Under the pieces are notes generated by a model, which saw only the letters and a list, made by a program, of their open reading frames with translations, did not search any database and had not been told where the DNA came from. Position numbers and translations under genes: made by a program. Shown piece by piece: positions 1-18,249 of a stretch of 64,000 nt of DNA (position 1 is the first letter of the stretch; each line of letters starts with the position of its first letter). Origin of the DNA: Ascidiella aspersa (taxonomy: Eukaryota); the NCBI GenBank assembly GCA_963924565.1, contig OZ004607.1, positions 2,170,001 to 2,234,000 on the forward strand, read 5' to 3'.

Positions 1-130
1 CTGATTTCCGTTTTCCTGTCGGGCTGGTGTCGCTAATCCCCAACGCAGTCGCTTTTGCGCTATATATTCTAATGCTGGAACTGTAGAACGCGATCAAATT
101 ATCCGTTTGCTTCACTTGTTATGCTGCGCC
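1..130 (+). promoter_or_regulatory. Putative non-coding first exon / promoter-proximal region of ZNF-A (5' end may lie outside the window)
   Basis: Near-identical to 8238-8367 upstream of ZNF-B. Both copies end at a donor-like site (GTAAGC at 131; GTGAGT at 8368) and similarity collapses about 10 nt later. Contains an ETS-like TTCCG/TTCCTG motif. Confidence 0.55.
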
Positions 131-2939: not shown

Positions 2940-3011
2940 CCAGCTAAAGATGTTTAAACAGTTCTGCTAAATATTAATATTTTCGGTTTTATACTTTTTA
3001 GGAGTAAAAAT

Positions 3012-4613
3012 ATGTCAAACTCTCAAATCTATCTTGAAACCGTAGATCTAAAAAAACAGAGCGATAATGGATTTTCTGATGATTCTGTTGCCACGATTAC
3101 AAGTGATGGGTCAAAAGAACATCAAACTGTAAACGAAGACCATAAATGTGAAGGGCAAAGTGACTTGGATCAGAAGATTGTTATTAGAGGGAGGAAATAT
3201 GATAAATCAGCAGGAAATGAAGCGGAAGTTAGTTTTAAAGACAAGGACAAGTTTCGTTGTCACATTTGTGAAAAGTCTTTCCAAAGTCCTGGCAAGTTAA
3301 ATTGGCATCTATCTTCAAAACAGTTGAAGAAACACGAATGCAAGGTATGCGGGAAATGTTGTGGAACAACTGGTGATCTAAAAAGTCATATTGCAGTTCA
3401 CACTGGAGAAAAACCTTACAAATGCAACTATTGTGAAAAGTGTTTTGCCAGGCAAGGAGAGCTTACAGTTCATGAAAGAACTCACACTGGCGAAAAACCT
3501 TACAGCTGCAAATATTGTTTTAAATGTTTCAGCCAAGCAGGGGGTCGTAGAAATCATGAAAGAACTCACACTGGAAAAAAACCATTTGAGTGTAACGAAT
3601 GTGGAAAATGTTTTGCCAGGAAAGATAATCTTATCAATCATATGCGAACCCATACTGGTGAAAAGCCTCACGAATGCAAATATTGTGCGAAACGGTTTAC
3701 CTCAAAGAGTGATCTTAATAAGCATGAACGAATTCACACTGGTGAAAAACCATTTGCGTGCAAGTATTGTGAAAAATGTTTTGCCGCGAGTGGTAATCTT
3801 AGTCAACACGAAAGAATTCACACCGGAGAAAAACCATACATATGCAATCATTGTGGAAAATCGTTTGCCAGCAAAGGATACCTTAAATCACATGAAATAA
3901 CTCATACCGGAGAAAGACCTTTCAAATGCAAATATTGTGAAGAAAGTTTTACATATGGAGGAGCTCTTAAAAAACACGAAGTTCATCACACTGGAGAAAC
4001 ACCTTATAAATGCAAACATTGTGGAAAATGTTTTGGCATGCAAGGAGATCTTACAACTCATGAAAGAACTCACACTGGAGAAAAACCTTTCAGATGTAAG
4101 TATTGTGGAAAATATTTCAGCCAAGTTGGAAGTCTTAAAACTCATGAACGAATACACACAGGTGAAAAACCATACAAGTGTAAAGAATGTGGAAAATGCT
4201 TTTTTACTTCAGGAAATCTTGCAAGTCACAAAAGTACTCATACTACAGAAAAACCGCACAAATGCAGTATTTGCGGTAAGTGTTTCACACTTGTATATCA
4301 TTTAAGAAAACATGCAAAGACTCACACGGGAATCAAACCTTTTAAATGCAAACTTTGTGGAAACTGTTTCACCACTTCGCGAGCTCTTAACATCCATGAA
4401 AGGATTCACACCGGAGAAAAACCTTACAAATGTAAAGAATGTGGAAAGTGTTTTGTCCAGCTGGGGCATCTTAAATGTCATGAAAGAATTCACACTGGGG
4501 AAAAACCCTACGTGTGTAATGTTTGTGAAAAAAGCTACAGTCAAATGTCAACTCTCAAAAAACATGAAAACACACACACCAGAAAAATAGCCCTACAAAT
4601 GCAAATGTTGTAA
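3012..4613 (+). CDS. ZNF-A: tandem C2H2 (Kruppel-type) zinc-finger protein, 533 aa, 15 canonical fingers plus 1 degenerate; ancestral last finger lost by frameshift
   Basis: Repeated CxxC-x12-HxxxH with TGEKP linkers at an 84-nt period. Acceptor TTTTTAG|G at 3001/3002, 10 nt before the ATG. Confidence 0.93.
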   Translation: MSNSQIYLETVDLKKQSDNGFSDDSVATITSDGSKEHQTVNEDHKCEGQSDLDQKIVIRGRKYDKSAGNEAEVSFKDKDKFRCHICEKSFQSPGKLNWHLSSKQLKKHECKVCGKCCGTTGDLKSHIAVHTGEKPYKCNYCEKCFARQGELTVHERTHTGEKPYSCKYCFKCFSQAGGRRNHERTHTGKKPFECNECGKCFARKDNLINHMRTHTGEKPHECKYCAKRFTSKSDLNKHERIHTGEKPFACKYCEKCFAASGNLSQHERIHTGEKPYICNHCGKSFASKGYLKSHEITHTGERPFKCKYCEESFTYGGALKKHEVHHTGETPYKCKHCGKCFGMQGDLTTHERTHTGEKPFRCKYCGKYFSQVGSLKTHERIHTGEKPYKCKECGKCFFTSGNLASHKSTHTTEKPHKCSICGKCFTLVYHLRKHAKTHTGIKPFKCKLCGNCFTTSRALNIHERIHTGEKPYKCKECGKCFVQLGHLKCHERIHTGEKPYVCNVCEKSYSQMSTLKKHENTHTRKIALQMQML

Positions 4614-4725
4614 CAAATGTTTTGCGTGAAAAATTCACCTTAAAAGACATGAAAAGACTCATGGAGATTATTTTGAGAGCCCTGCTCAAACCAACCCTGA
4701 CCAACTTACAGCTGTTTTGAAGTGA
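4588..4725 (+). pseudogene. Fossil last finger and C-terminal tail of ZNF-A, now in the 3' UTR
   Basis: Aligns to ZNF-B 14583-14720 with a +1 insertion near 4588 and an in-frame CGA>TGA at 4627-4629. The ancestral stop TGA is at 4723-4725. Confidence 0.85.
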
Positions 4726-5330
4726 CTTGATTTATGGAAAATGTGAAATTAAAACGCTAGATAAATCAATTTTGATTTAAACTGCATTTCTTAAAGTTCA
4801 TTTTTACTTTCTTGTAATATTTTGGCATCTTTGAAAATAATTCAACCCATACGGTAATGTTAGAAATAGAAAGTATGCTTTTATCAGCAAAATTAACAAA
4901 CGCTTTATTGACAATTTGAATGAAATTGTTTATTGTGTTCACACGCTTTGTTTTTTTTTTGTTTTAATTTTACACGTTTAAGCTGGATTTGTTATTCATT
5001 TGTCGCTGTATTATATCAATTTATTGATATCGTTTGTTTGACTGAAATATATCGTCGATGTAATAACCGCCAAACGTTTCTTAGTAATGTCATCTGTTAA
5101 TTAGTTAAATTGAGTAATTACGTACAATTTATATCTTTATTAATAGTTTATTAACTTCTCAAGAAAAGGATTTTACCCCTGACTTGTATATTAAGGCTAG
5201 GACCACCCTATTTTACGTTTTAAGTTGGGTTGAACAGCATTGCATTGTTACCCACGCATGTCTGTCAAGATTTTACTCCCATATCCCTTTTTGCAGTCAA
5301 ATAAAATTAACCAAAACTTATCGTTTAAAC

Positions 5331-5680
5331 TAGCGGTCAGCAAACTATATTATGGCTCGCGGCCAGATCCGGCCCACTGGTTTAATTGATCCGGCCCGCG
5401 GCATATTTCCTCAGGGAAGATCAAGCACAGTTGATGTTCTGTTAAATGCAATTCAGAACTAAATTTCAATGAACATTTTAAACTGTACGACAAATTAGTT
5501 AAGCTCGCTACAGTTTTTATTGCATTGTCGTATATTTCCTTCGTTTAAAGCAATCAGTTTAATTAACTTAGACCAAACAATTTAAATACGACCCGCGTAA
5601 ATCTTGAATTGTTGTCTTTCCCGAGATGGACAGGCCTTACAGATATCTGGACGTTTGTCAAAAAAGCTTGTTGACCCCTG
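5331..5680 (+). mobile_element. hAT (Buster-type) MITE; relative at ~27669-28020
   Basis: Degenerate TIRs TAGCGGTCAGCAAACT / AGCTTGTTGACCCCTG, CGGCCC subterminal repeats, TSD GTTTAAAC / GTTTATAC (7/8). Confidence 0.75.
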
Positions 5681-5696
5681 GTTTATACAAAATCTT

Positions 5697-6243
5697 ACAA
5701 TTGGAGAGCAAAGTAAACTATTTAGCGTTTGTAGAGATCTGTCTAAGCTGGTTATTAATTCCGAAGAGACCAATGCAGACTGACGCAACAGGCGGTGCAA
5801 CATACAGCGTGAAAAAGGCGGCTTTGAAACTTTGCTTAAATAACTGGCAGTCTAGGGCTTTCGGCTTAGTCTAGAGTTATGATTTGTGTTTTGCGAGTTT
5901 GTGTAAAGTAATTCTACAATACACTAACTTCAAGTAAGTAGCATTTGTAAAGTTGAAATAGTACCATCGTTGACGCGAAGCTAGTGCAAGGAGACGTGGA
6001 TGCATATTGCCGGTTAGTCATTGTACAGTTAGCTTGTGTAGGTACTTCCCATCACAGAAGGTCGCAGAATAGAGGGAACTGAACGAGCATAGGTTTACCG
6101 GCCCTCAATTACAAATGACAGAAGCGGAAACGAGAAGAATTATAAAACACAGCAGGAACAGACCTACACTAGACTAGCAACCGTAAAAACAGCAGTCCAC
6201 GCTAAAGTACAATTGAATGAACAACTTTATAATCAAGTTTAAA
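5697..6243. repeat. Conserved non-coding block, copy 1 (copy 2 at 16197-16734)
   Basis: Collinear high similarity, e.g. TGCAGACTGACGCAACAGGCGGTGCAACATACAGCGTGAAAAAGGCGGCTTTGAAAC and AGAAGCGGAAACGAGAAGAATTAT are identical in both copies. Confidence 0.85.
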
Positions 6244-6573
6244 AACAAACAGTAACTTGGAATACCACGAATTAAATTTAGCGAGCTGATATATTTAGTT
6301 GAGGTCCAACTAGTCGTAATGTTGCAGTTACTAGTTGGGCAAAACTCATATCAAAATAGCTTAATTTGACGATTAGCATAACTGCCTTCTGTGTAGTAAG
6401 ACCGAATCGAACTGAATATTAATGTTTTAAATAATTAAGAATAGTTCGATTGCTGTAAGTAATGTGTAAACTTTTGATGGATGTATTGTTTCTTTCTGGA
6501 GATATTATACGATGAAATTTCGAACTGAATGCTTCCCTTTGTTACAGCAGACGTATATAACTGTACTCCACAC

Positions 6574-7330
6574 CAGTGGTCTCCAACCTGTGGGGTCGCT
6601 TAAAATTTTTCTGGGGTCGCCATAACTCACCAAATTCTTGCTGTTTTAGTACGATATATGTAATGACGTCAAAACAATAAACGTGACTGAGTACATAGCA
6701 CAGATAAAATTTTGTTTCTTCTAAATAAAATAGGTGTTTTAGCTGTTAAACTGGTAGGTTACAAGGATTTTAGAAAATAAATATTTACATTTGAATTTCG
6801 ATGTAATTCAGTTAACCTACACGACTCAGTCCAATTTTGTGATTTTACTATACTCTTATATACTCTTTCCGTTTTCAACTACATGGGATTTGTTTAACGA
6901 ACTTCAGCGCAATGAGCATATTAAAAACGAAACACCGTAAATCGCTTGGAAGTAGAGCTTGACGGTTATGTCGGTTATGCTTATGCAAAGTGGGGCCGCT
7001 TTTTCAAAAACTGGTGAACACTACTAAGCTGGCGCAACCATCACACTAAATGCAATTTACTGTTCAAACAAATTGATTTTTTTGTATTAGTTGGTGTGCC
7101 AAATTCAAATACTTAATTTACATAAAACTACCTAAACGAAATCATTTTGGTGCACATATGTAGCCATAGGTCTTTGGAAATGTGTAAAGTTAACGCATTT
7201 ATTCACTCGTGTTACTTTCCATTATTTAGAATATTTTTGTTCCTATCTGAAAACAATGGGGTCGCAATGAAAATTATGATTTCATTTTATTTAAATTGGG
7301 GTCGCCCGTTAAAAAGGTTGGAGACCACTG
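6574..7330 (+). mobile_element. Buster/Charlie-family hAT deletion derivative carrying a decayed transposase C-terminus (~6860-7049)
   Basis: Perfect TIR CAGTGGTCTCCAACCT; TSD CTCCACAC / CTCTACAC. Frameshifted translation ILFPFSTT..FSAMSILKTKHRKSL..RLCLCKVGPLFQKLVNTTKLAQPSH* matches the characteristic Buster/ZBED5-like C-terminus. Confidence 0.9.
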
Positions 7331-7419
7331 CTCTACACAAACCGTTATAAACATTGCAAAATCACATAAGGTGTTTAACGCACATGTTGATTAAAAAAGT
7401 ATTTTGTCGGTTGGGGCAT

Positions 7420-7930
7420 AAAATTGCTTTGCATAAGTGAGTAGAGTTCTATATAACAATGTGGCGCTCGACATTAGCTTGTTCAGACTGCTTGTTTGTC
7501 TTTTTTTTTAAAGGCTTCCAACCAATAACAACTGGTAGTTTGTCTGCAGATACTAGTGGCCCGGTAACGAATTTAGTTGTGGCCTAATACATTAAGCCAA
7601 TTATTACCAAACTTTATTCCTTGGTCGCCTTTGGAAAAAGTTTGCTTGACTTGCGACGCACCAAGTGATAAGAATTTTACTTATTTTGATTGATTTAGTT
7701 GTTTCTTTGTAAAACATAATATCAAAATTAGTCGAACCTCCCAGCTGGTTTGCAAGGCGCAAGAAACCAACTGTATCCAATGCAGCAAGAAAAAGGCAAA
7801 TTTGAAGTACGCTTGGTTAAGTAGCAGGTCTAGGATTTTGCATTCGCAAAGCATGTCAATAACTTTTTGGTTATTGGGACTGTTTTGTATCAGTTGTAAT
7901 GTATGCAAGTATTCATTTTGTCAACAACAG
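7420..7930 (+). mobile_element. Highly decayed Tc1-like transposase remnant
   Basis: Fragments in mixed frames (TGS, HNIKISRT, AGLQG, RKKPTVSNAARKR with RKKP at 7758-7769, FAKHVN, YWD) follow the Tc1 order GL.GR.ARKKP..S...R..FA..H....W. No TIR seen. Confidence 0.4.
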
Positions 7931-8237
7931 CCAAAGAATTAACTAACGCTATGTGGAGTTTTTAGTAAAGTTAATAATAATTAACGTAGTTCTTCATACA
8001 GCCAAGGTTGCTAGTTTACAAAAGTTTAGCTTTCCTTTATTAATTACATTTCTCTACTTTAAGTTAAAATTATAATATTATTGTAAGATTTTGAATTGTT
8101 ATACAGACCCTGTAAGTTATTTAATGGCAATGTGTCAGCCTAACGCTTGATTTTAGCTTATTTTGTGACAAAGAAGTCTACAAACTGTAATGGCGCAAGC
8201 TGTCTAGTGTATGCGCGACTGTGTGTGCGATTATAGG

Positions 8238-8367
8238 CTGATTTCCGTTTTCCTGTCGAGCTGGTGACGCTAATCCCCAACGCAGCCGCTTTTGCGCTAT
8301 ATATTCTAATGCTGGAACTGTAAAACGCGATCAAATTATCCGTTTGCTAAACTTTTTATGCTGCGCT
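8238..8367 (+). promoter_or_regulatory. Putative non-coding first exon of ZNF-B
   Basis: Paralog of 1-130. Donor GTGAGT at 8368; matching acceptor TTTTTAG|G at 12913/12914. Confidence 0.55.
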
Positions 8368-9837
8368 GTGAGTTGTAGGCGATGTATTGAAAGCGGATAA
8401 CTATGCAAGATTTTTTAATTGTAAAATGAATACCGCTGGCTGACAATATGCAATTTTAATTTTCGAGACAGTTTGTTTGGTTTCAGTTTAGTAAAGTCCG
8501 ACAGTTCATTGGTTCAAATATACAAAACCAGTATAAATTTGGAAAGAATATTATTATTTTTTTTATTTAAGGCACAAAGTAATCGCAGGTAGATAGTCTT
8601 TCTAGTTGTTATCTAGTTTGTTAATCGTTGGTGCGACTTGAAATGTGAACAAAATTTTCTTAGCTGCACGCTTGAAAACGATGCTTTAAACTAGCTTTCG
8701 TGACACCCCTTTTTTATTCGAACAAGAATTAAGTCTGACATGCCATTTATTAATAAAGTCTATTTAACAAAGATCGTCTAACTCGGAATGAGAACAAAAC
8801 CAGTCGGAAAAAGACCTAAATGACCAGAATAAGACCTGTACAACGTTACCTAACCCCACCCCACCCTAACCTCAATTTAGCACTAATTCCCCTAATAATT
8901 ATAACCCCAACCTGGTTTCTAGCCTCTACCATTACCCTACTCAACCCCAAATATGGCAAACAATTGTCGTTTTAACTGATCAGCCTACATGGTTTATATA
9001 ACAAAACGCCTGATGCCAAACGTAAAATTTCAGGCTGAATTGCGTCTTTTAGGTTTTATTCCAAATAGTTTATGAACTATTCTAACAAGTTTAGATAATA
9101 TTATGTCGTGAATATTACTGCGTATTAGTTTTTGTTGTTCTCCAGCTAGAAGACTGAGATAAAAAACATCAACGTCGGAATTAAACACAGTTCGGAATCG
9201 CACCAAAATAGGGCTAACACATAATTTCGGACGGATTCCGATGAGTTTAGGGCTTATTCAGGTGATTTCGATCTCATACTGTATAGGATATTACTGCGTC
9301 GATTTGTCTTTATTATGTCGTTGGTCTTCATTGTACTATGATTTTATAGATTTTTCTGCTTCAGGTATTGTTGCTTTTTAGGTCATGTGTTCCCAATTAT
9401 ATACATAACTATATAGGGTTTGTTGAAGTTGGATTTTGGACAGAATTTTATAAAAAAGTGTATTTATGATGTGTTTTCTAAAGGGACTTTACTATTTACA
9501 CTAAATTTAGTAATTATAAATAAAGTATTCCATCAGTGCTCGGCAGACTGTTGCTGTTACCCAAATGTGCGCCTGTTGGACATTTTTAGTGGGCCGCGAG
9601 CAATTTTTTAAGTAATTTTAGGCTTCACGTATCCTTTTAATTGAAGTTTAGCCAAGGTAAAATAAATTAAAACCCTTTTTATAATATTTTTAATTGCTAT
9701 GCTTGGCAAATTTTCAAGGTGGGACCTTAAGAAGGTGGTTTAAAAACATATAAACACAGAGCAACAGGGTGGATAACTTAAATCCTGTGTATGTTAACAG
9801 GCTTGAATATAAATGAAAATATAACTAAACAATTTGT

Positions 9838-10845
9838 TCAACAAGTGTTGTTCTTCCACAAATATACAAATGCAGAAATGCTGCTGTGCCCTACAAAGGT
9901 TTGCCCAATAAAGGCCTTGAAGAGCTTTTCTGTAAGACGAGTTGAGCATGGCTGCCTAAAAAATAAAATTTAGATCAATATAATATACTGCAATAATTAA
10001 ATTATACACTGTCACTGAACAACTTTTTTTTACTTGCATAGTAAAATTTTCAAGTTACCGACTAGAACCACTACAAGTCATGTCATAAAAATATGTTTTA
10101 GTCTGTCATTAACCACCACAAAAACATATTATTATGACTTGTACTAAGTTTGTGGCAATGCATTCTTTAAGCATAGCATTAGGAAATGTATTATTCGTGT
10201 TACACTTTAACTGAATGATAGTGCAATGATTGTGAAACAAGTTCATTTTTATTGTAATTGATATCTTCATAACCCACAAAAATTAAAAAAAAGGTTCACC
10301 CTACTTTGAAAACAAATTAAATCATTAAATAATTTCATACAAAAGGGTAATATGTGTTCCAGATTATTGAAATTTGTGCTTAAACAAGTGATACACAATC
10401 TAACCCAAAAAAGTTGCCCATTACTGGGATATGCAGACCAAACATTAGACACAGCACATATAAATTAAATGTATTTACCATAAATTGAGTTTTTTACCTT
10501 GTGATCTATACTCTTTTGTTGATTTCCACTTGAACTTTGTCACAGACTTTTGTTTTCCCATCTTACACTTTGCAGTTAAAATTCCTGTAAATCAATAAAA
10601 AAATTATGTAAATTTAGTAGCATTCCAAAGTACTACAGATTAAATTTCACATTTAAAGCTTTAATGTCAGATATAAACAATGGAAATGATAAATTAAAGC
10701 TAAAACACATATTAAAGTACCTCAGAAATTTTATAGAGATTGAAAAAACATCAATTTTGGTGAAAATGTTGGAATAATATTTACCATATTTTTTTACATA
10801 TTCTATGATGAAAGGTTCTAAGCAAAAACTTATATATTGGTCAAT
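9838..10845 (-). pseudogene. Decayed, intron-containing antisense coding fragments in a CpG-depleted segment (possibly CxC/KDZ-type transposase)
   Basis: Minus-strand exon-like pieces with strong acceptors (10584-10498; 9955-9838) and only about 3 CpG in ~1.2 kb. Peptides: C....AYPSNGQLF(G)LDCVS and QPCSTRLTEKLFKAFIGQTFVGHSSISAFVYLW. Family assignment is from recalled motifs only. Confidence 0.3.
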
Positions 10846-11304
10846 TTTGAAAAGCAATAGTTTTCCTCGCTGGCCGCTTCATACGAAATAAAAGCCAAAT
10901 GTGAATAAGCTATATTAACGTAAAATATGTAAGTAAAATTTACTTACATTTTTAACCTTAATCGTCCATGAAGCAAGTAATTTTAAGTCGAAAAGAGCAA
11001 TCGGTTGGCTGTCATTGATTGCCCTGAAACAAAGCAGTGTAATCTTAGTATATTTAATGTTATTAAATTGTTAAAAGCATACTTGATTGTTTAACAGAAA
11101 AATTAAATTTCTATTTTGGATAAAAAAACATACAAACCTTGAATGATTCAATTAATTTAATCCTTTTATAAAGTGTAAAGCAACAAATCATCATGAAATA
11201 GTCTTTTACAACTTTCATTGCTTTTGGATTTATGAATGAAATACCTAAAATTATGAAACAAAAATCCAAATTCAGTCACTTCGATTTCCAAGACAAGGCT
11301 TTTG

Positions 11305-11574
11305 GGCGCTCTTTCACTTATGTACGTGAAAAGTTATGCAAAAACATAACAAAATAATACCGCATACCACAACGCATATTGTTCGGGTTAGGGTGGGGGT
11401 TAGCGTTTGGGTGAGGGTGGGTCAAGTAATATTATGTTTATTATTAATAATAACTTGACCCACCCTCAACCAAACGCTAACCCGCACCCTAACCCAAACA
11501 ATATGCGTTGGAGTTTGCGGCATTTGAAGAAAGTTTTTTTTATTAATTTTCACGTACATAAGTGAAAGAGCGCC
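11305..11574. mobile_element. Foldback MITE (nearly whole-length palindrome) with telomere-like arms; GG-start TIR and 8-bp TSD suggest Merlin-like
   Basis: TIR GGCGCTCTTTCACTTATGTACGTGAAAA. Inner arms GGGTTAGGGTG..GTTAGCGTTTGG..GAGGGTGGGTCAAGT are inverted. Perfect TSD GGCTTTTG (11297-11304, 11575-11582). Confidence 0.85.
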
Positions 11575-12469
11575 GGCTTTTGTAACATACATTTTAGATT
11601 CTAAACCTGACAGTCTTGCACAGCTAATAAAACATTATTACTACACATTTATCAAAAAGCAAATTAAAGTATATATGTCACCACTATACACTTTATAGTA
11701 CGCAAAACCGGCTTTAACTGTAAAGTATAACTTGTAAAAGTTCTAAGCTTTTTTTTCTGTTTGGCGTTTCAATATCCACAGGCCAGTGTTCATGTTCATC
11801 GGACCGAATCAATTTCAAATACCTTATGACTTTATTTATTGAATAAACTTTATATGTACACAGAAAATTGTTTTGAAACAAAAAATAATTACTATAATTA
11901 GTTGAAATATATCGTAAATCGAACACTTAATAAAGAATACTTACTGTTCGTCATATGTCAAACCATTTATTCTTGAAAAATATACAAGCTTCATGGCGAT
12001 ACAGCTTTTCTCTAGAAAAAATCCGTGCCGTAGATTGTTTTCATCGCGCGTTTTTTTATTGCTGGCGCAATTTAAGTAGGTCATGGCGGCACAAGACCGC
12101 ACAGCTTCGCTTTGTACTTTGGTACAAAGCTATAGGCAAGCTACATTAATGAAATCATATATTGGATTTAATGGCGCGTTAAGCACACTAACCCGTATAT
12201 TTGTTATTTTAACATAATGTCAAATAGGCCGAACAGATGTTAAGTTAGGAAACCATGATATAAGTAATTTTGTTTATTGTGATCTGTTACGACCATGTAT
12301 GCTAACTTGTTAAATATTTGACGAAATCGATAGACGCAATCGTACATAAAACAACCGCTCAGTGCTTTAAAATAACAATAGCTCTCTCAACAACATCCCA
12401 TCACATCAACATAAATGGCTTAAGCTATAACTTTGCAAGAATGTATCGAACTAAACATGTCTAACAATC

Positions 12470-12690
12470 AACGTGTTAAAATATCAAGTGTTTAATCGTC
12501 AACGTGTTTAAAATCGTTAATTGTGCTTAAAATCTCCCAATATTCTATGTTAAACACGTCAAAATATCAGGTGTTTAGCATAAAATCGTTCAGGTGTTTA
12601 GAATTTAAACATCAAAATTCAAATTAAACACAAAGGTGTTTAAATTAGGTGTTGAAGTGTTTAGATTTTAAACGTGCTTAGACCGTTTTG
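12470..12690. repeat. Degenerate array of short GTGTT(T)AA/TTAAACAC units
   Basis: About a dozen GTGTTTA-like motifs in both orientations, probably transposon-derived. Confidence 0.45.
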
Positions 12691-12923
12691 GTGTTCTTTT
12701 TTAATCGTTTTCTTAAATTTTGTGGTGTTATATTTGGACGAGACAGTTTTATTATATTATAGAGTGAATGAAATCTGGAGATAGAAGCTAGGGGTGAACA
12801 AAACTAAAAAAATTTAAGCCGTAACTGCCCGATCTGATTTTATCGGAATCCCTGCCTGCTAAATATGTTTAAACAGTTCTGCTAAATAATGTTATCTGTT
12901 TTTTTCTTTTTAGGAGTAAAAAT

Positions 12924-14720
12924 ATGTCAAACTCTCAAATCTATCTTGACACAGCAGAGCTAAAACAACAGAGCGATGATGGATTTTCTGGTGATTCTGT
13001 TGCCACGACTACAAATGATGGGTCAAAAGAACTTCAAAGTGTAAATGAAGACTCTAAATGTGAAGGGCAAAGTGACTTCGATCAGAAGATTGTTATTAGA
13101 GGGAGGAAAGAAAATACATTTGGAAGAATCCAAACGGAAGTTAGTTTTAAAGACAAGGACAAGTTTCGTTGTCACATTTGTGAGAATTCTTTCGAAAGTC
13201 GCGGCAAGTTAAATTGGCATCTATCTTCAAAACATTTGAAGAAACACGAATGCAAGGTATGCGGGAAATGTTGTGGAACAACTGGTGATCTAAAAAGTCA
13301 TAATGTAGTTCACACTGAAGAAACACCTTACAAATGCAACTATTGTGAAAAGTGTTTTGCCAGGCAAGGAGAGCTTACAACTCATGAAAGAACTCACACT
13401 GGCGAAAAACCTTTCAGCTGCAAATATTGCTTTAAATGTTTCAGCCAAGCAGGGGGTCGTAGAATTCATGAAAGAACTCACACTGGAGAAAAAACATTCC
13501 AGTGTAACGAATGTGGAAAATGTTTTGCCAGCAAAGCTAATCTTATCAATCATATGCGAACCCATACTGGTGAAAAGCCTTACGAATGCAAATATTGTGC
13601 GAAGCGGTTTAGCTCAAAGTTTGATCTTCAAAGGCATGAACGAATTCACACTGGTGAAAAACCATTTACGTGCAAGTATTGTGAAAAATGTTTTGCCGTT
13701 AGTGGTAATCTTAGTCAACACGAAAGAATTCACACCGGAGAAAAATCATACTCTTGCAATCATTGTGGAAAATCGTTTCCACACAAACGAAACCTTAAAT
13801 CACATGAAATAACTCATACCGGAGAAAGACCTTTCAAATGTAAATATTGTGAAGAAAGTTTTACATATGGAGGAGCTCTTAAAAAACACGAAGGTCAGCA
13901 CACTGGAGAAACACCTTATAAATGCAAACATTGTGGAAAATGTTTTGGTCGGCAAGGAGATCTTACAACTCATGAAAGAACTCACACTGGAGAAAAACCT
14001 TTCAGATGTAAGTATTGTGGAAAAAATTTCGGCCAAGCTGGAAATCTTAAAACTCATGAACGAATACACACAGGTGAAAAACCATACAAGTGTAAAGAAT
14101 GTGGAAAAGGCTTTCTTACTTCAGGAAATCTTGCAAATCACAAAAGTACTCATACTACAGAAAAACCGCACAAATGCAGTATTTGCGGTAAGTGTTTTTC
14201 ACTTGTAGATCATTTAAGAAAACATGCAAAGACTCACACGGGAGTCAAACCTTTCAAATGCAAACTTTGTGGAAAGCGTTTTGCCCGGCTGTGGCCTCTT
14301 ACTATCCATGAAAGAATTCACACCGGAGAAAAGCCCTACGTGTGTAAGGTTTGTGAAAAAAGCTACAGTCAAATGTCAACTCTCAAAAAACATGAAAACA
14401 CACACACTGGGGAAAAGCCCTACGTGTGTAAGGTTTGTGAAAAAAGCTACAGTCAAATGTCAACTCTCAAAAAACATGAAAACACACACACTGTGGAAAA
14501 GCCCTACGTGTGTACGGTTTGTGAAAAAAGCTACAGTCAAATCTCAACTCTCAAAAAACATGAAAACACACACACTGGAGAAAAGCCCTACAAATGCAAA
14601 TGTTGTAACAAAGGTTTTGCGCGAAAATATCATCTTGAAAGACATGAAAAGATTCATGGAGATTATTGTGAGCGCCCTGTTCAAACCAACCCTGACCAAC
14701 TTACAGCTGTTTTGAACTGA
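12924..14720 (+). CDS. ZNF-B: tandem C2H2 zinc-finger protein, 598 aa, 18 fingers; recent paralog of ZNF-A
   Basis: Uninterrupted ORF with TGEKP linkers; acceptor 10 nt before the ATG; collinear with ZNF-A including the proximal 3' UTR. Confidence 0.95.
   Translation: MSNSQIYLDTAELKQQSDDGFSGDSVATTTNDGSKELQSVNEDSKCEGQSDFDQKIVIRGRKENTFGRIQTEVSFKDKDKFRCHICENSFESRGKLNWHLSSKHLKKHECKVCGKCCGTTGDLKSHNVVHTEETPYKCNYCEKCFARQGELTTHERTHTGEKPFSCKYCFKCFSQAGGRRIHERTHTGEKTFQCNECGKCFASKANLINHMRTHTGEKPYECKYCAKRFSSKFDLQRHERIHTGEKPFTCKYCEKCFAVSGNLSQHERIHTGEKSYSCNHCGKSFPHKRNLKSHEITHTGERPFKCKYCEESFTYGGALKKHEGQHTGETPYKCKHCGKCFGRQGDLTTHERTHTGEKPFRCKYCGKNFGQAGNLKTHERIHTGEKPYKCKECGKGFLTSGNLANHKSTHTTEKPHKCSICGKCFSLVDHLRKHAKTHTGVKPFKCKLCGKRFARLWPLTIHERIHTGEKPYVCKVCEKSYSQMSTLKKHENTHTGEKPYVCKVCEKSYSQMSTLKKHENTHTVEKPYVCTVCEKSYSQISTLKKHENTHTGEKPYKCKCCNKGFARKYHLERHEKIHGDYCERPVQTNPDQLTAVLN
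14331..14582 (+). repeat. Three near-identical 84-bp finger units (YVCKVCEKSYSQMSTLKKHENTH)
   Basis: AAGCCCTAC begins at 14331, 14415, 14499 and 14583. ZNF-A has only one copy of this finger. Confidence 0.95.
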
Positions 14721-15591: not shown

Positions 15592-16196
15592 GGCACTAGG
15601 AAGCGTATGTATTGTTGTCTGAAAATTAAATTAGTATAACCCTTTTGTGCCGAACTAATGCGTTTGGCCGCGAAAATCGCCGTTAAGATAGACTTGGTTT
15701 TCCCTGGGGGGATAGGACTCTTTGTAAATTTTGCTTTCACAGCCTCAGTTTTCTCAGCGCTGCGTGATATCTTTGTGTGCGATTTCGTTTCGGGTTGCGT
15801 CCTGTTTTATAGTAATTCTTCTGGTGGATAAATACGAATGAAAACAAAATAAAGATATAATTTGCGTTCCACAAACACTGACAATAAAAAAATGCGATTT
15901 CCGCATTCCGAATTGCTCTATTGTAACTTTAAATTTCTCCCGCGGAGAACAATAAAAAATGGATAACTTAACATTTACGTACGCTATCTGTTGCAACAAT
16001 TTAAGGTTTATCTATTTGCCAAATAAAGTAGCACTTGTGATACGCTGTATTAGCTAGTCCCGGGCTTTAGAACCTTTCTAGCGTCGTTACCATTACGAAA
16101 CGGCTAAATGAAACTCAACGTATTCTCAACTAAATATAAGCATTTCAGATATCCTGTCAGTATTTTAAGTATTTAGGTATATTCTTTACGTTTTAT

Positions 16197-16734
16197 ACAA
16201 CTGGAGAGCAAAGTAAACTATTTAGCAAGTTTGTAGAGATCTGTCTAAGCTGGTTGTTAATTCCCAAAAGACCAGTGCAGACTGACGCAACAGGCGGTGC
16301 AACATACAGCGTGAAAAAGGCGGCTTTGAAACCTTGCTTAAATAACTCGCAGCCTAGGGATTATGGCTTAGACTAGAGATATGATTGCGGAGTGTTTTTG
16401 CTAGTCTTGTGTAAAGCAATTCTACAGTATGCTAACTTCAAGTAACTAGCATTTGCAAAGCTATTATAGGCAACTTTGGTGTATACTACTACTTGTACAG
16501 TTAGCATGTGTAGCTAATTTTATTACAGAAGGTCGCTGAATAGAGGGGAATGAAGGAGACCAAGGGTTGATGCTCTGGTCCTCAAGTTCAAATGATAGAA
16601 GCGGAAACGAGAAGAATTATAGAGCACATCAAAAATATGAACGCTACCGCTATAAACAGACCTAAACTAAACCAGCAACCGTGAAAACAGCACTTCACGC
16701 AAAAGTAAATGAACAACTTTGGAATCAAGTTTAA
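16197..16734. repeat. Conserved non-coding block, copy 2 (possible promoter/first exon of ZNF-C)
   Basis: Collinear with 5697-6243; lies ~0.7 kb upstream of the ZNF-C acceptor. Confidence 0.8.
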
Positions 16735-17448
16735 ACTCTGGTCATATCGGGCAGTTTGCGATGGCTTTCGGGGAACTACATAAGCCGTAATCGTTGGTCA
16801 AAAAGCAGCTTCAGAAAGGGCCAGATCACAGTTGTTCAACACACATGTGTGTGTGTGTCTTTCATTGCGTATGGAAGTATAGGCAACATTTATGTACATG
16901 TTTCGAAAAACTCTTATTTACAATATCGAACTAACAGTTCGGCCTGTGTGGAAGCGGCATTTAATATCGGAATTATCTGCGTGACCAGTGTTTGTTTTAA
17001 TGTGTTTTGGGGGACCGTTTCGGTCAAATTTCTCCAGCGGTTTCCCAAATTTTGGACTTACAACTTTTTGGTATTTACATGAAACACTTGCGGTCTAAAA
17101 ACTACTTAGCGGTCACCCAAACCAAACCTTAAAAAAAAACCTGTGCGTGACTGTAAATGAAATTCAATTCTTTGTATTTATCGTAAGCTAAAATTCTCAT
17201 AACTATTTGCAAATATAAAAAATCTAATTGTAATAGCGTAAAAGTTGTTATACAAAATTAGTGCAATTATCTGCATGATCACAAAATAAAAATGAACGCC
17301 TTGAGGGAAAGATTTTTTTAGTAGGCTACACTATTTTGTTTAGAAACAAATGTTTAAACTTTGCATTTATAGTACGCGGAAATCATTAAGTTTAGGTTTA
17401 AATGTACTACGAATACCATTCTATTTTTGTTTTTTTACAGCTGAAAGT

Positions 17449-18249
17449 ATGTCTAACTTTGAAATAAGTTTTGTTAAAACAGATATCACCAAACAGAGAG
17501 GTTATCGAATACCTGGTGATTCTGTTGCCACGGTAACTGGTTGTTCATCACACAAAGATCAGATATCAACTGAAGAGTTCGTTTGTGAAGGACAATCCTT
17601 TTGTCATCCAAATATAAAAAGCTTATATTACGAAGATGAAGTCAAAGAGTTTCGATGTTTCGTTTGCGAAAAGTGTTTTGCCAATGGCAAACTTCTAGCA
17701 GCCCATTTATCCACCCATTTTCCTGGGAAACATGGTTGTAAGGTTTGTGGGAAGCATTTCTCAACAATCTATGAACTTGAATGTCATCAGGTTTTCAGCA
17801 ACAGAGAAAATCTTAAAAGTAAAATTGTCCGAGCGATCGCTAATCGAAAAAGTGCTGACAAAAAAATATACAAGTGCAAGTATTGTGGGAAATGCCTTTC
17901 AAATTTAACCTATCTTAGAAGTCATGAACGAACTCACACTGGAGAGAAACCTTACAAATGCGAACAGTGTGGAAAATCTTTGACCCGACTACAAAATCTA
18001 AAACTTCATATTCGTATTCACGCCAGTGAGAAACCTCACAGTTGCAAATATTGTGTGAAGCGCTTCTGCCAAAAACGTGCGCTAGTGATCCACGAAAGAG
18101 TCCATACTCGAGAAAAACCTTTCAAATGTGAAGAATGTGGAAAAAGTTTCGCTAGCCCCTCATGTTTAGGCAAACACAAAAAGATCCACCGCGCACAAGT
18201 TTCTGAATCTACCAAGACCGGAGTTCAAGATGACAATGTACAAGAATGA
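17449..18249 (+). CDS. ZNF-C: C2H2 zinc-finger protein, 266 aa, 5 intact fingers plus 1 broken; older paralog of ZNF-A/B
   Basis: Start moved from the ORF track's 17350 to ATG 17449. Acceptor TTTTTTACAG| ends at 17440, and MSNFEI...DSVAT...CEGQS aligns with the ZNF-A/B N-termini. Confidence 0.85.
   Translation: MSNFEISFVKTDITKQRGYRIPGDSVATVTGCSSHKDQISTEEFVCEGQSFCHPNIKSLYYEDEVKEFRCFVCEKCFANGKLLAAHLSTHFPGKHGCKVCGKHFSTIYELECHQVFSNRENLKSKIVRAIANRKSADKKIYKCKYCGKCLSNLTYLRSHERTHTGEKPYKCEQCGKSLTRLQNLKLHIRIHASEKPHSCKYCVKRFCQKRALVIHERVHTREKPFKCEECGKSFASPSCLGKHKKIHRAQVSESTKTGVQDDNVQE

Follow-up and report, generated by a model that had tools for sequence, protein, structure and literature searches.

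The closest described counterparts of the genes studied here are expanded families of tandem C2H2 zinc-finger (ZNF) genes. Poly-ZF expansions are described as TGEKP-linked arrays that occur in clusters, gain and lose fingers, and are under selection at helix positions -1, 3, and 6 (Emerson and Thomas 2009, PMC2604467). In the part of that paper used here, positive selection is reported for seven vertebrates and not for fly or mosquito, and Ciona is counted as having 103 poly-ZF genes and is not listed among the species tested. The cyprinid FiNZ-ZNFs are KRAB-less, lie mostly on one chromosome, and have an acidic N-terminal motif and selection at base-contacting residues; the part of the source on which we draw describes FiNZ as a conserved 28-aa domain in its own exon and demonstrates transposon (TE) repression by FiNZ-ZNFs in zebrafish (Wells et al. 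2023, PMC10547256). According to the same part, insect ZAD-ZNF expansions apparently lack TE targets (PMC10547256), so expansion alone does not imply such targets. The general model of ZNF-TE coevolution is already published (PMC2604467, PMC10547256), including the idea that KRAB-less metazoan families take part (PMC10547256). In the sections cited of both papers, the support for invertebrates is a correlation in copy number together with entropy and predicted motifs, and insect dN/dS tests are negative. At stake is whether control of TEs by ZNF proteins is peculiar to vertebrates or general among animals. What is new here is the lineage and a direct result of dN/dS above 1 in an invertebrate chordate.

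The window (the whole 64,000-nucleotide stretch of Ascidiella aspersa DNA that was analyzed) contains two such genes, ZNF-A and ZNF-B, each with one coding exon. The ZNF-A exon (3012..4613, + strand; acceptor AG at 3000-3001) encodes 533 aa with 16 C2H2 fingers, and the ZNF-B exon (12924..14720, + strand; acceptor AG at 12912-12913) encodes 598 aa with 18. Positions 1..130 (+), which end at a GT donor at 131, are likely the non-coding first exon or promoter segment of ZNF-A, and the start may lie upstream of the window. This region is 93% identical to 8237-8379 (143 nt), with donor motifs at 131 and 8368, and 8237..8367 (+) is likely the non-coding first exon of ZNF-B, with the GT donor at 8368 predicted from the DNA. 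A third and more divergent family member, ZNF-C (17449..18249, +), encodes 266 aa with 6 Pfam C2H2 stretches, and its N-terminus matches the family N-terminal profile (E=3.2e-19).

Whole fingers have been gained and lost among the paralogues. Finger positions place the canonical array of ZNF-A (fingers 2-16) at 3333..4577 (+). Of these, finger 15 is unmatched in ZNF-B, and finger 16 is the counterpart of a recent triplication in ZNF-B (fingers 15-17, 14337..14588, +). A third paralogue on the minus strand (G000:C1:2121865) contains the unit formed by ZNF-A fingers 5 and 6 (A5-A6) four times. By direct reading of the sequence, the terminal finger and tail of ZNF-A survive at 4591..4725 (+) only as an out-of-frame remnant with an in-frame stop; both are kept in ZNF-B.

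ZNF-A and ZNF-B arose recently as tandem copies in an ascidian C2H2 family with 152 matches in the genome. Among the 150 matches listed, 145 are on contig C1, where family members lie mostly in four clusters, and 14 have stops in the first 143 codons. Filtering 161 finger ORFs by start and motif left 96 start-intact genes (median 8 fingers; 89 with at least 5), and many of the 65 that failed are fragments. The 714 canonical fingers of these 96 genes have 449 different four-residue codes, and entropy is highest at positions 6, -1, 3, and 2. The family is like the poly-ZF expansions in its clusters, finger turnover, helix-focused selection, and tandem arrays (at least three C2H2 fingers with TGEKP-type linkers; 16 in ZNF-A and 18 in ZNF-B), but this one family numbers about 150 copies in an ascidian, and its omega is above 1.

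No KRAB, zf-AD (PF07776), PR/SET, or repressor domain was found by Pfam in ZNF-A, ZNF-B, or ZNF-C, and genome-wide searches run without a positive control found no KRAB or zf-AD. The matches, Pfam, and the N-terminal profile support the proposal of the sequence-only reading that this is an independent, clustered, and apparently lineage-restricted family with neither KRAB nor ZAD. Tetrapod KRAB-ZNFs share its clustered paralogues, single finger exon, helix-focused change, and finger turnover, but the ascidian family is without KRAB, an upstream coding exon, or a known cofactor. KRAB-ZNFs are further characterised by TE binding and by silencing that depends on KAP1/TRIM28. A hidden upstream exon encoding an effector was rejected because acceptor-to-ATG distances occur in all three phases (32, 30, and 17 of 79 genes), a conclusion drawn from DNA and not from spliced reads. 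PRDM9 finger arrays also combine fast contact-site change with internal repeat duplication, as seen here in ZNF-B fingers 15-17 and the fourfold unit of G000:C1:2121865; unlike PRDM9, this is a multigene family and not a single locus, and Pfam detects neither PR/SET nor KRAB. Insect ZAD-ZNFs are likewise an invertebrate lineage-specific C2H2 expansion, whereas this family has no zf-AD; for the fly and mosquito expansions no positive selection is reported in the part of the source cited (PMC2604467).

The N-terminal region of ZNF-A (3012..3251, +) consists of an acidic Ser/Asp/Glu-rich family motif and a basic spacer; it contains no Pfam family and matches the family profile with E=3.8e-27. Across the family the N-terminus is 30% D+E and is encoded in the same exon as the fingers. 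The FiNZ-ZNFs are similar in being KRAB-less, concentrated on one chromosome (here one contig), and selected at contacts, and in having an acidic N-terminal motif. By description the two are set apart, since the ascidian motif shares the finger exon, is near-neutral in close pairs, and is without a detectable relative. FiNZ-ZNFs are also marked by expression at zygotic genome activation. Pairwise estimates put the omega of the acidic ascidian N-terminus at 0.8-1.1 for close pairs and at 0.5-0.9 for distant ones, and maximum likelihood (ML) gives 0.95 in 24 disjoint close pairs, so its evolution is near-neutral. A FiNZ-like constrained domain is unsupported given the pairwise values of about 1 in close pairs. 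A single-sequence search for relatives of the N-terminus returned only finger matches (108 proteins), a 56-sequence profile matched none of 7991 candidates, and a protein-atlas search returned generic C2H2 clusters. In a set of 1.84 billion representatives the profile had a single match, to a low-complexity protein rich in Ala, Pro, and Lys, which was rejected as chance. Two large protein sets, with tunicate genomes outside the search, thus held no credible relative of this fast-evolving region. Adjacent to it is the family-specific first finger (3252..3323, +, in ZNF-A), with HX4H spacing, a short linker, and, in ZNF-A, Gln in place of the last His. At its non-contact positions the first finger has 4 changes where neutrality predicts 31.9, and this strongly constrained finger is a candidate effector.

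In fingers 2-14, ZNF-A and ZNF-B differ at 17 of 52 contact positions (-1, 2, 3, and 6) and at 29 of 312 other finger positions (Fisher p=2.9e-5), and 11 of 13 finger codes are changed. The sequence-only reading had reached these counts by hand; they were exact on recount, and the five helix pairs it quoted are all correct. The excess persists against the freely variable non-contact positions alone (23 of 169; p=0.003), and the ML omega at contacts for this pair is 2.43 (p=0.0024). The N-terminus of the pair is also fast, with 21 changes where 8.9 are expected; leaving out a single replaced block of 9 codons brings this to 12 where 8.0 are expected. Among single finger positions, -2, which is outside the contact set, has changed most often (6 of 13).

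Selection in the family was estimated by pairwise tests, not PAML site models, in 24 disjoint close gene pairs, with 17 of 190 fingers left out as framework outliers. ML omega at contacts is 1.95 (likelihood-ratio test against 1, p=2.6e-6), and the values are 0.07 for structural, 0.40 for linker, and 0.71 for frame positions. The scaffold is under purifying selection, and change at the predicted DNA-reading residues runs at about double the neutral rate. Counting each changed contact codon once gives 76 against 43.6 expected (ratio 1.74, bootstrap 1.04-2.42). A finger-level test designed against shuffling, in which fingers are paired by framework alone and contact dN is divided by helix-internal dS, gives 2.05, 2.31, and 2.15 in three divergence bins, with every interval above 1.6. 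In 22 of 24 pairs, introns diverge as much as fourfold sites do (0.0350 and 0.0354), which makes dS a fair neutral reference, and depressed dS was rejected as the source of the excess. CpG mutability was also rejected, as the finger-level ratio is 2.1-2.4 with CpG codons removed and under a gene-pair bootstrap. Diversifying selection very probably acts on the DNA-binding specificity of this family.

From general C2H2 biology, these arrays would be expected to bind DNA, and changes at the contacts to alter specificity. We propose that selection keeps retuning the helix contacts to fast-changing repeated DNA, such as transposons, and that the family proteins would mark repeats for silencing. Repeats as targets and heterochromatin as the outcome are suggested by analogy with KRAB-ZNFs and FiNZ-ZNFs. 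In the most speculative step, the constrained first finger, and not the near-neutral acidic N-terminus, would recruit the cofactor. The same contact-residue signature is known from vertebrate transposon-silencing proteins, and by this analogy a transposon target is likely in the ascidian family. We are evenly divided on the explanation as a whole (young copies, a family of about 150 genes, selection-driven retuning to repeats, and silencing). By the same analogy, repeats or TEs may be the main target, a claim with about as much for it as against it. MITEs as the specific target seem improbable. A bolder version, which we think unlikely, is a transposon-surveillance ZNF system invented by ascidians, members of the vertebrates' sister group, and lacking a separate repressor domain; the first finger would recruit the cofactor, and the downstream fingers would race young mobile elements by point change and internal repeat-and-diverge shuffling.

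Alternatively, positive selection may be real and the moving target may be satellites, other selfish repeats, viral DNA, host enhancers, or the cluster's own genes, and not transposons, a reading we consider plausible if somewhat doubtful. The selection evidence is silent on the target, Pfam found no repressor domain in the three window genes, and an N-terminus so acidic and near-neutral fits an activation-type region equally well. Against one of these targets, the factors that read host enhancers are as a rule conserved. The part of PMC10547256 cited here bears on both sides: among the frequent targets of KZNFs are satellites, promoters, and other KZNFs, and Drosophila ZAD-ZNFs apparently do not target TEs, but knockdown of a positively selected poly-ZF family, the zebrafish FiNZ-ZNFs, leads to TE derepression.

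Retuning by selection is also to be weighed against neutral birth and death, in which the fold is kept by selection and the contacts drift in redundant, weakly expressed copies; we regard this as quite improbable. Early stops, the 65 of 161 finger ORFs that failed the filter, and the loss from ZNF-A of its terminal finger and one first-finger His are consistent with it. So is a near-zero RNA signal in one run (stage not given, 6% read), where read depth was taken over the part of ZNF-B upstream of the fingers, with depth 0.3-0.7 at the start of its coding exon and 0 on its predicted first exon (8237..8367). Only 14 of 24 pairs exceed neutral expectation at contacts, several keep their finger code (for example, 1 change where 4.5 are expected), and 33 of the 76 contact changes come from two pairs. 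Once every codon with multiple base changes is removed (42 of the 119 contact codons that differ), contact omega falls to 1.31 (p=0.15); this exclusion is conservative because true double hits are also lost. The dN/dS check at -1/2/3/6 proposed by the earlier reading gives about 2 across paralogues and loses significance without multi-base codons. However, drift would give omega of 1 and not 2, the N-terminus at about 1 under the same model is an internal neutral control, and the ratio is still 1.7-2.4 when multi-base codons are treated as single events. Relaxed helix constraint, the alternative raised by that reading, is argued against by contact dN/dS above 1, and with structural residues at 0.07 relaxed constraint alone is unlikely.

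Fingers 2-14 of ZNF-A and ZNF-B are collinear, yet not all are orthologous. ZNF-A finger 6 is 2 nt from finger 5 of G000:C1:2121865, and ZNF-B finger 6 is 6-8 nt from the four repeat copies in that gene, the last copy being nearest; these distances suggest that the two are probably not orthologous. The view that the helices of the pair have no donor elsewhere is wrong for fingers 5-6, given these copies. Identical alternative helices recur across other gene pairs, and with helices common to non-sister genes the pairs are not fully independent. Although these matches to different copies of the unit, the recurring helices, and the removed outlier fingers would suit an artefact in which unequal crossing-over or gene conversion has led to comparison of fingers that are not orthologous, we consider this very improbable, as a swapped helix carries its own synonymous sites and contact dN is still twice helix-internal dS in every bin, the ZNF-A/ZNF-B excess persists without fingers 5, 6, and 14 (10 of 40 contacts against 20 of 240 others; p=0.004), and most helices of the pair have their partner as nearest neighbour among 1118 library fingers.

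The family raises the sharp question of how a ZNF without KRAB, ZAD, or FiNZ recruits an effector. Through the shared N-terminus a knockdown of the whole family, like that done in zebrafish, is feasible, and the embryos of ascidians are amenable to experiment.

The earlier observation that MITEs are abundant in this genome was borne out, and retroelements are likewise abundant (1374 RT candidates, of which the best 150 were scored; many intact RT frames). Within the ZNF-B intron, genome matches, ends, and ORFs define a dispersed repeat of about 3 kb without a long ORF (9664..12704, no strand assigned), which is missing from ZNF-A. It has 107 genome-wide matches, with near-full-length copies at 13 other sites (81-89%). 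Nested in it is a 270-bp MITE (11305..11574, no strand assigned) with 40-nt terminal and 75-nt internal inverted arms, which has very high read depth and is missing in two other copies of its host repeat. The 3-kb repeat also contains a spliced RNA joint (9954-10497).

The zinc-finger feature in the window is real and larger than first noticed: its genes belong to a clustered family of an ascidian and carry a measured signature of selection. Three C2H2 genes lie on the forward strand: the tandem paralogues ZNF-A (3012-4613, 16 fingers) and ZNF-B (12924-14720, 18 fingers), and the divergent ZNF-C (17449-18249). Across fingers 2-14 of A and B, the counts of the sequence-only reading proved exact: 17 of 52 contact positions (helix -1, 2, 3 and 6) differ, against 29 of 312 positions elsewhere, and 11 of 13 fingers have a changed four-residue code. 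The contact excess gives Fisher p=2.9e-5, or p=0.003 when contacts are set against freely variable non-contact positions alone (23/169 differ). Without fingers 5, 6 and 14, contacts differ at 10/40 positions and others at 20/240, with a contact excess over neutral (p=0.008). Finger turnover is seen directly in the sequence: one ZNF-B finger is triplicated (14337-14588, forward strand), ZNF-A finger 15 lacks a counterpart in ZNF-B, and the terminal finger of ZNF-A has lost its frame and carries a stop. A segment of ~550 bp 3′ of both genes (5696-6243 and 16196-16735) has 75% identity, versus 91% for the coding exons.

Searching the genome (G000; 308.6 Mb, 75 contigs; its cellulose synthase matches Ciona CesA at 96% identity, which marks it as an ascidian) with ZNF-A residues 1-143 gave at least 152 matches, 150 of them listed. 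This is a lower bound on the family, since scoring covered 150 of the 1043 candidates and other searches show additional members. Contig C1 holds 145 of the 150 listed matches, and its clusters at 0.63-1.05, 1.34-1.56, 2.1-2.9 and 5.25-5.39 Mb hold most of those listed. We retrieved loci for 146 of the 150 places, yielding 161 closed frames with at least two fingers; in 96 of these the start codon and family motif are both present, and the other 65 (fragments and genes missed by the pattern, among others) were excluded from selection tests. Directly before the window, loci L116, L117 and L110 (G000:C1:2144000-2161000) contain at least four more members, three of them outside the selection tests, with a different and more charged set of helix codes. 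Other long C2H2 arrays (G000:C6:2.94-2.97 Mb and C4:1.31 Mb), unlisted by the N-terminal query, are possibly separate families.

The sequence-only reading proposed a test for dN/dS (omega) above 1 at the contacts across paralogues, and our own pairwise implementations, which are not PAML site models, give about 2. From 84 of the 96 genes we formed 42 disjoint pairs; the main set is the 24 with <10% nucleotide difference. Counting methods give a contact omega of 1.7-2.1 in this set, with bootstrap intervals above 1 (1.76, 0.99-2.74, without the window pair). A pairwise maximum-likelihood codon model, fitted after removal of 17/190 fingers with outlying frameworks, gives 1.95 at contacts (p=2.6e-6; 24 close pairs), 0.89 at other helix positions, 0.71 in the frame, 0.40 in linkers, 0.07 at structural positions, 0.24 in the first finger and 0.95 in the N-terminus. 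Divergence is equal in introns (0.0350) and at fourfold sites (0.0354; 22/24 pairs). Counting each changed codon once, there are 76 contact changes versus 43.6 expected (ratio 1.74, 1.04-2.42); the 18 more distant pairs, where finger orthology is less certain, give 2.5. The excess over expectation is confined to 14 of the 24 pairs, and 33 of the 76 changes come from just two, so the selection is episodic. Removing all multi-base codons lowers omega to 1.31 (p=0.15). The A/B N-terminus is fast too (21 changes versus 8.9 expected; 12 versus 8.0 once a single replaced block is left out), a hint that chance has lowered dS for this pair. A nine-codon block of the N-terminal spacer (A 3195-3224, B 13107-13136) is fully replaced between the two genes at equal length.

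Helices recur among non-sister genes. In a test designed to withstand shuffling, the 714 canonical fingers were paired by framework alone and contact dN was compared with dS of the same helix, which moves with any swapped segment. Omega is 2.05 (1.62-2.63; 177 pairs), 2.31 (72) and 2.15 (49) by divergence bin; a codon-level version with gene-pair bootstrap gives 2.12 (1.51-3.22) and 2.38, or 2.17 and 2.27 minus CpG codons. Diversifying selection on the contact residues is very probably real.

The paralogue closest to A and B, L003 (G000:C1:2121865, minus strand), lies ~48 kb ahead of the window and carries the A5-A6 two-finger unit four times. The copies have near-identical frameworks and a different helix each, and one finger of the unit has a framework within 2-3 nt of A/B. 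Finger 6 of A differs from the first copy by 2 nt and that of B lies 6-8 nt from all four, nearest the last; part of the A/B difference therefore predates their split. The four copies form a compact natural series suited to binding assays.

Family proteins consist of a short lead, an acidic motif (30% D+E, 20% S), a basic spacer, a non-canonical first finger (HX4H) and canonical fingers. Pfam finds no family in the N-termini of ZNF-A, B and C and no KRAB, zf-AD, SCAN, BTB or SET domain in the proteins, in keeping with the original description of a family having neither KRAB nor ZAD; genome-wide KRAB and zf-AD searches, run without a positive control, gave no matches. An N-terminal profile search outside the genome found no credible relative. 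An ATG follows shortly after the splice acceptor in every gene, and because acceptor-ATG distances occur in all three phases (32/30/17; 79 genes) the upstream exon is most likely non-coding and would therefore hold no hidden effector. A 143-nt block common to A and B (93% identity, GT donor at its end) is a candidate for this exon. The acidic motif (omega 0.8-1.1 in close pairs, 0.5-0.9 in distant pairs) is not clearly constrained in the former and modestly so in the latter. The first finger is under constraint, with 4 non-contact changes versus 31.9 expected (ratio 0.13), compared with 145 versus 264 (0.55) for the summed non-contact classes of canonical fingers. It would be the top candidate for a shared protein-binding module; that of ZNF-A has lost one His ligand.

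Poly-zinc-finger expansions in seven vertebrates show positive selection at -1, 3 and 6; the same study reports none for fly and mosquito and counts 103 such genes in Ciona (PMC2604467). Transposons have been argued to drive ZNF evolution throughout animals, with dozens of uncharacterised families, in a paper whose main text gives dN/dS for zebrafish only and omits tunicates (PMC10547256); a term search of the main text of a 2026 tunicate comparative genomics paper finds zinc fingers nowhere (PMC13746493). The supplements of these papers may contain ORF counts for tunicates. The literature searched, which leaves most subscription journals outside its coverage, yielded no account of a ZNF cluster in ascidians and no report of dN/dS>1 at the contact sites of a multigene ZNF family from an invertebrate. 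The proposed arms race with transposons would, at about even chances, be the likeliest single mechanism. Many of the genome's 1374 reverse transcriptase candidates (the best 150 of 1374 scored) lie in long uninterrupted frames, and MITEs occur within the window; this abundance provides no link from the fingers to any element, and the suggestion that MITEs are the targets has no support.

In one RNA run (6% read, stage unspecified), depth is 0.3-0.7 where the ZNF-B coding exon begins and 0 at the inferred first exon of this gene; a DNA run covers both. The ZNF-B intron contains a dispersed ~3-kb repeat (9664-12704) without a long ORF (at most 110 aa across the four loci examined), found elsewhere at 13 near-full-length places (81-89%) and as many incomplete copies across 8 contigs. 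Thirteen RNA reads of this repeat family show a minus-strand GT-AG splice (9954-10497). Within it lies a 270-bp MITE (11305-11574) with nested inverted arms, which two further copies of the host repeat lack. The read depth of this MITE is very high, the top of the stretch with mapped reads. Another element (6574-7330), which we take to be a hAT-type MITE, has terminal inverted repeats of 15 bp and an almost perfect target duplication of 8 bp; similar ends are also seen near 1561-1905 and 2776-2795.
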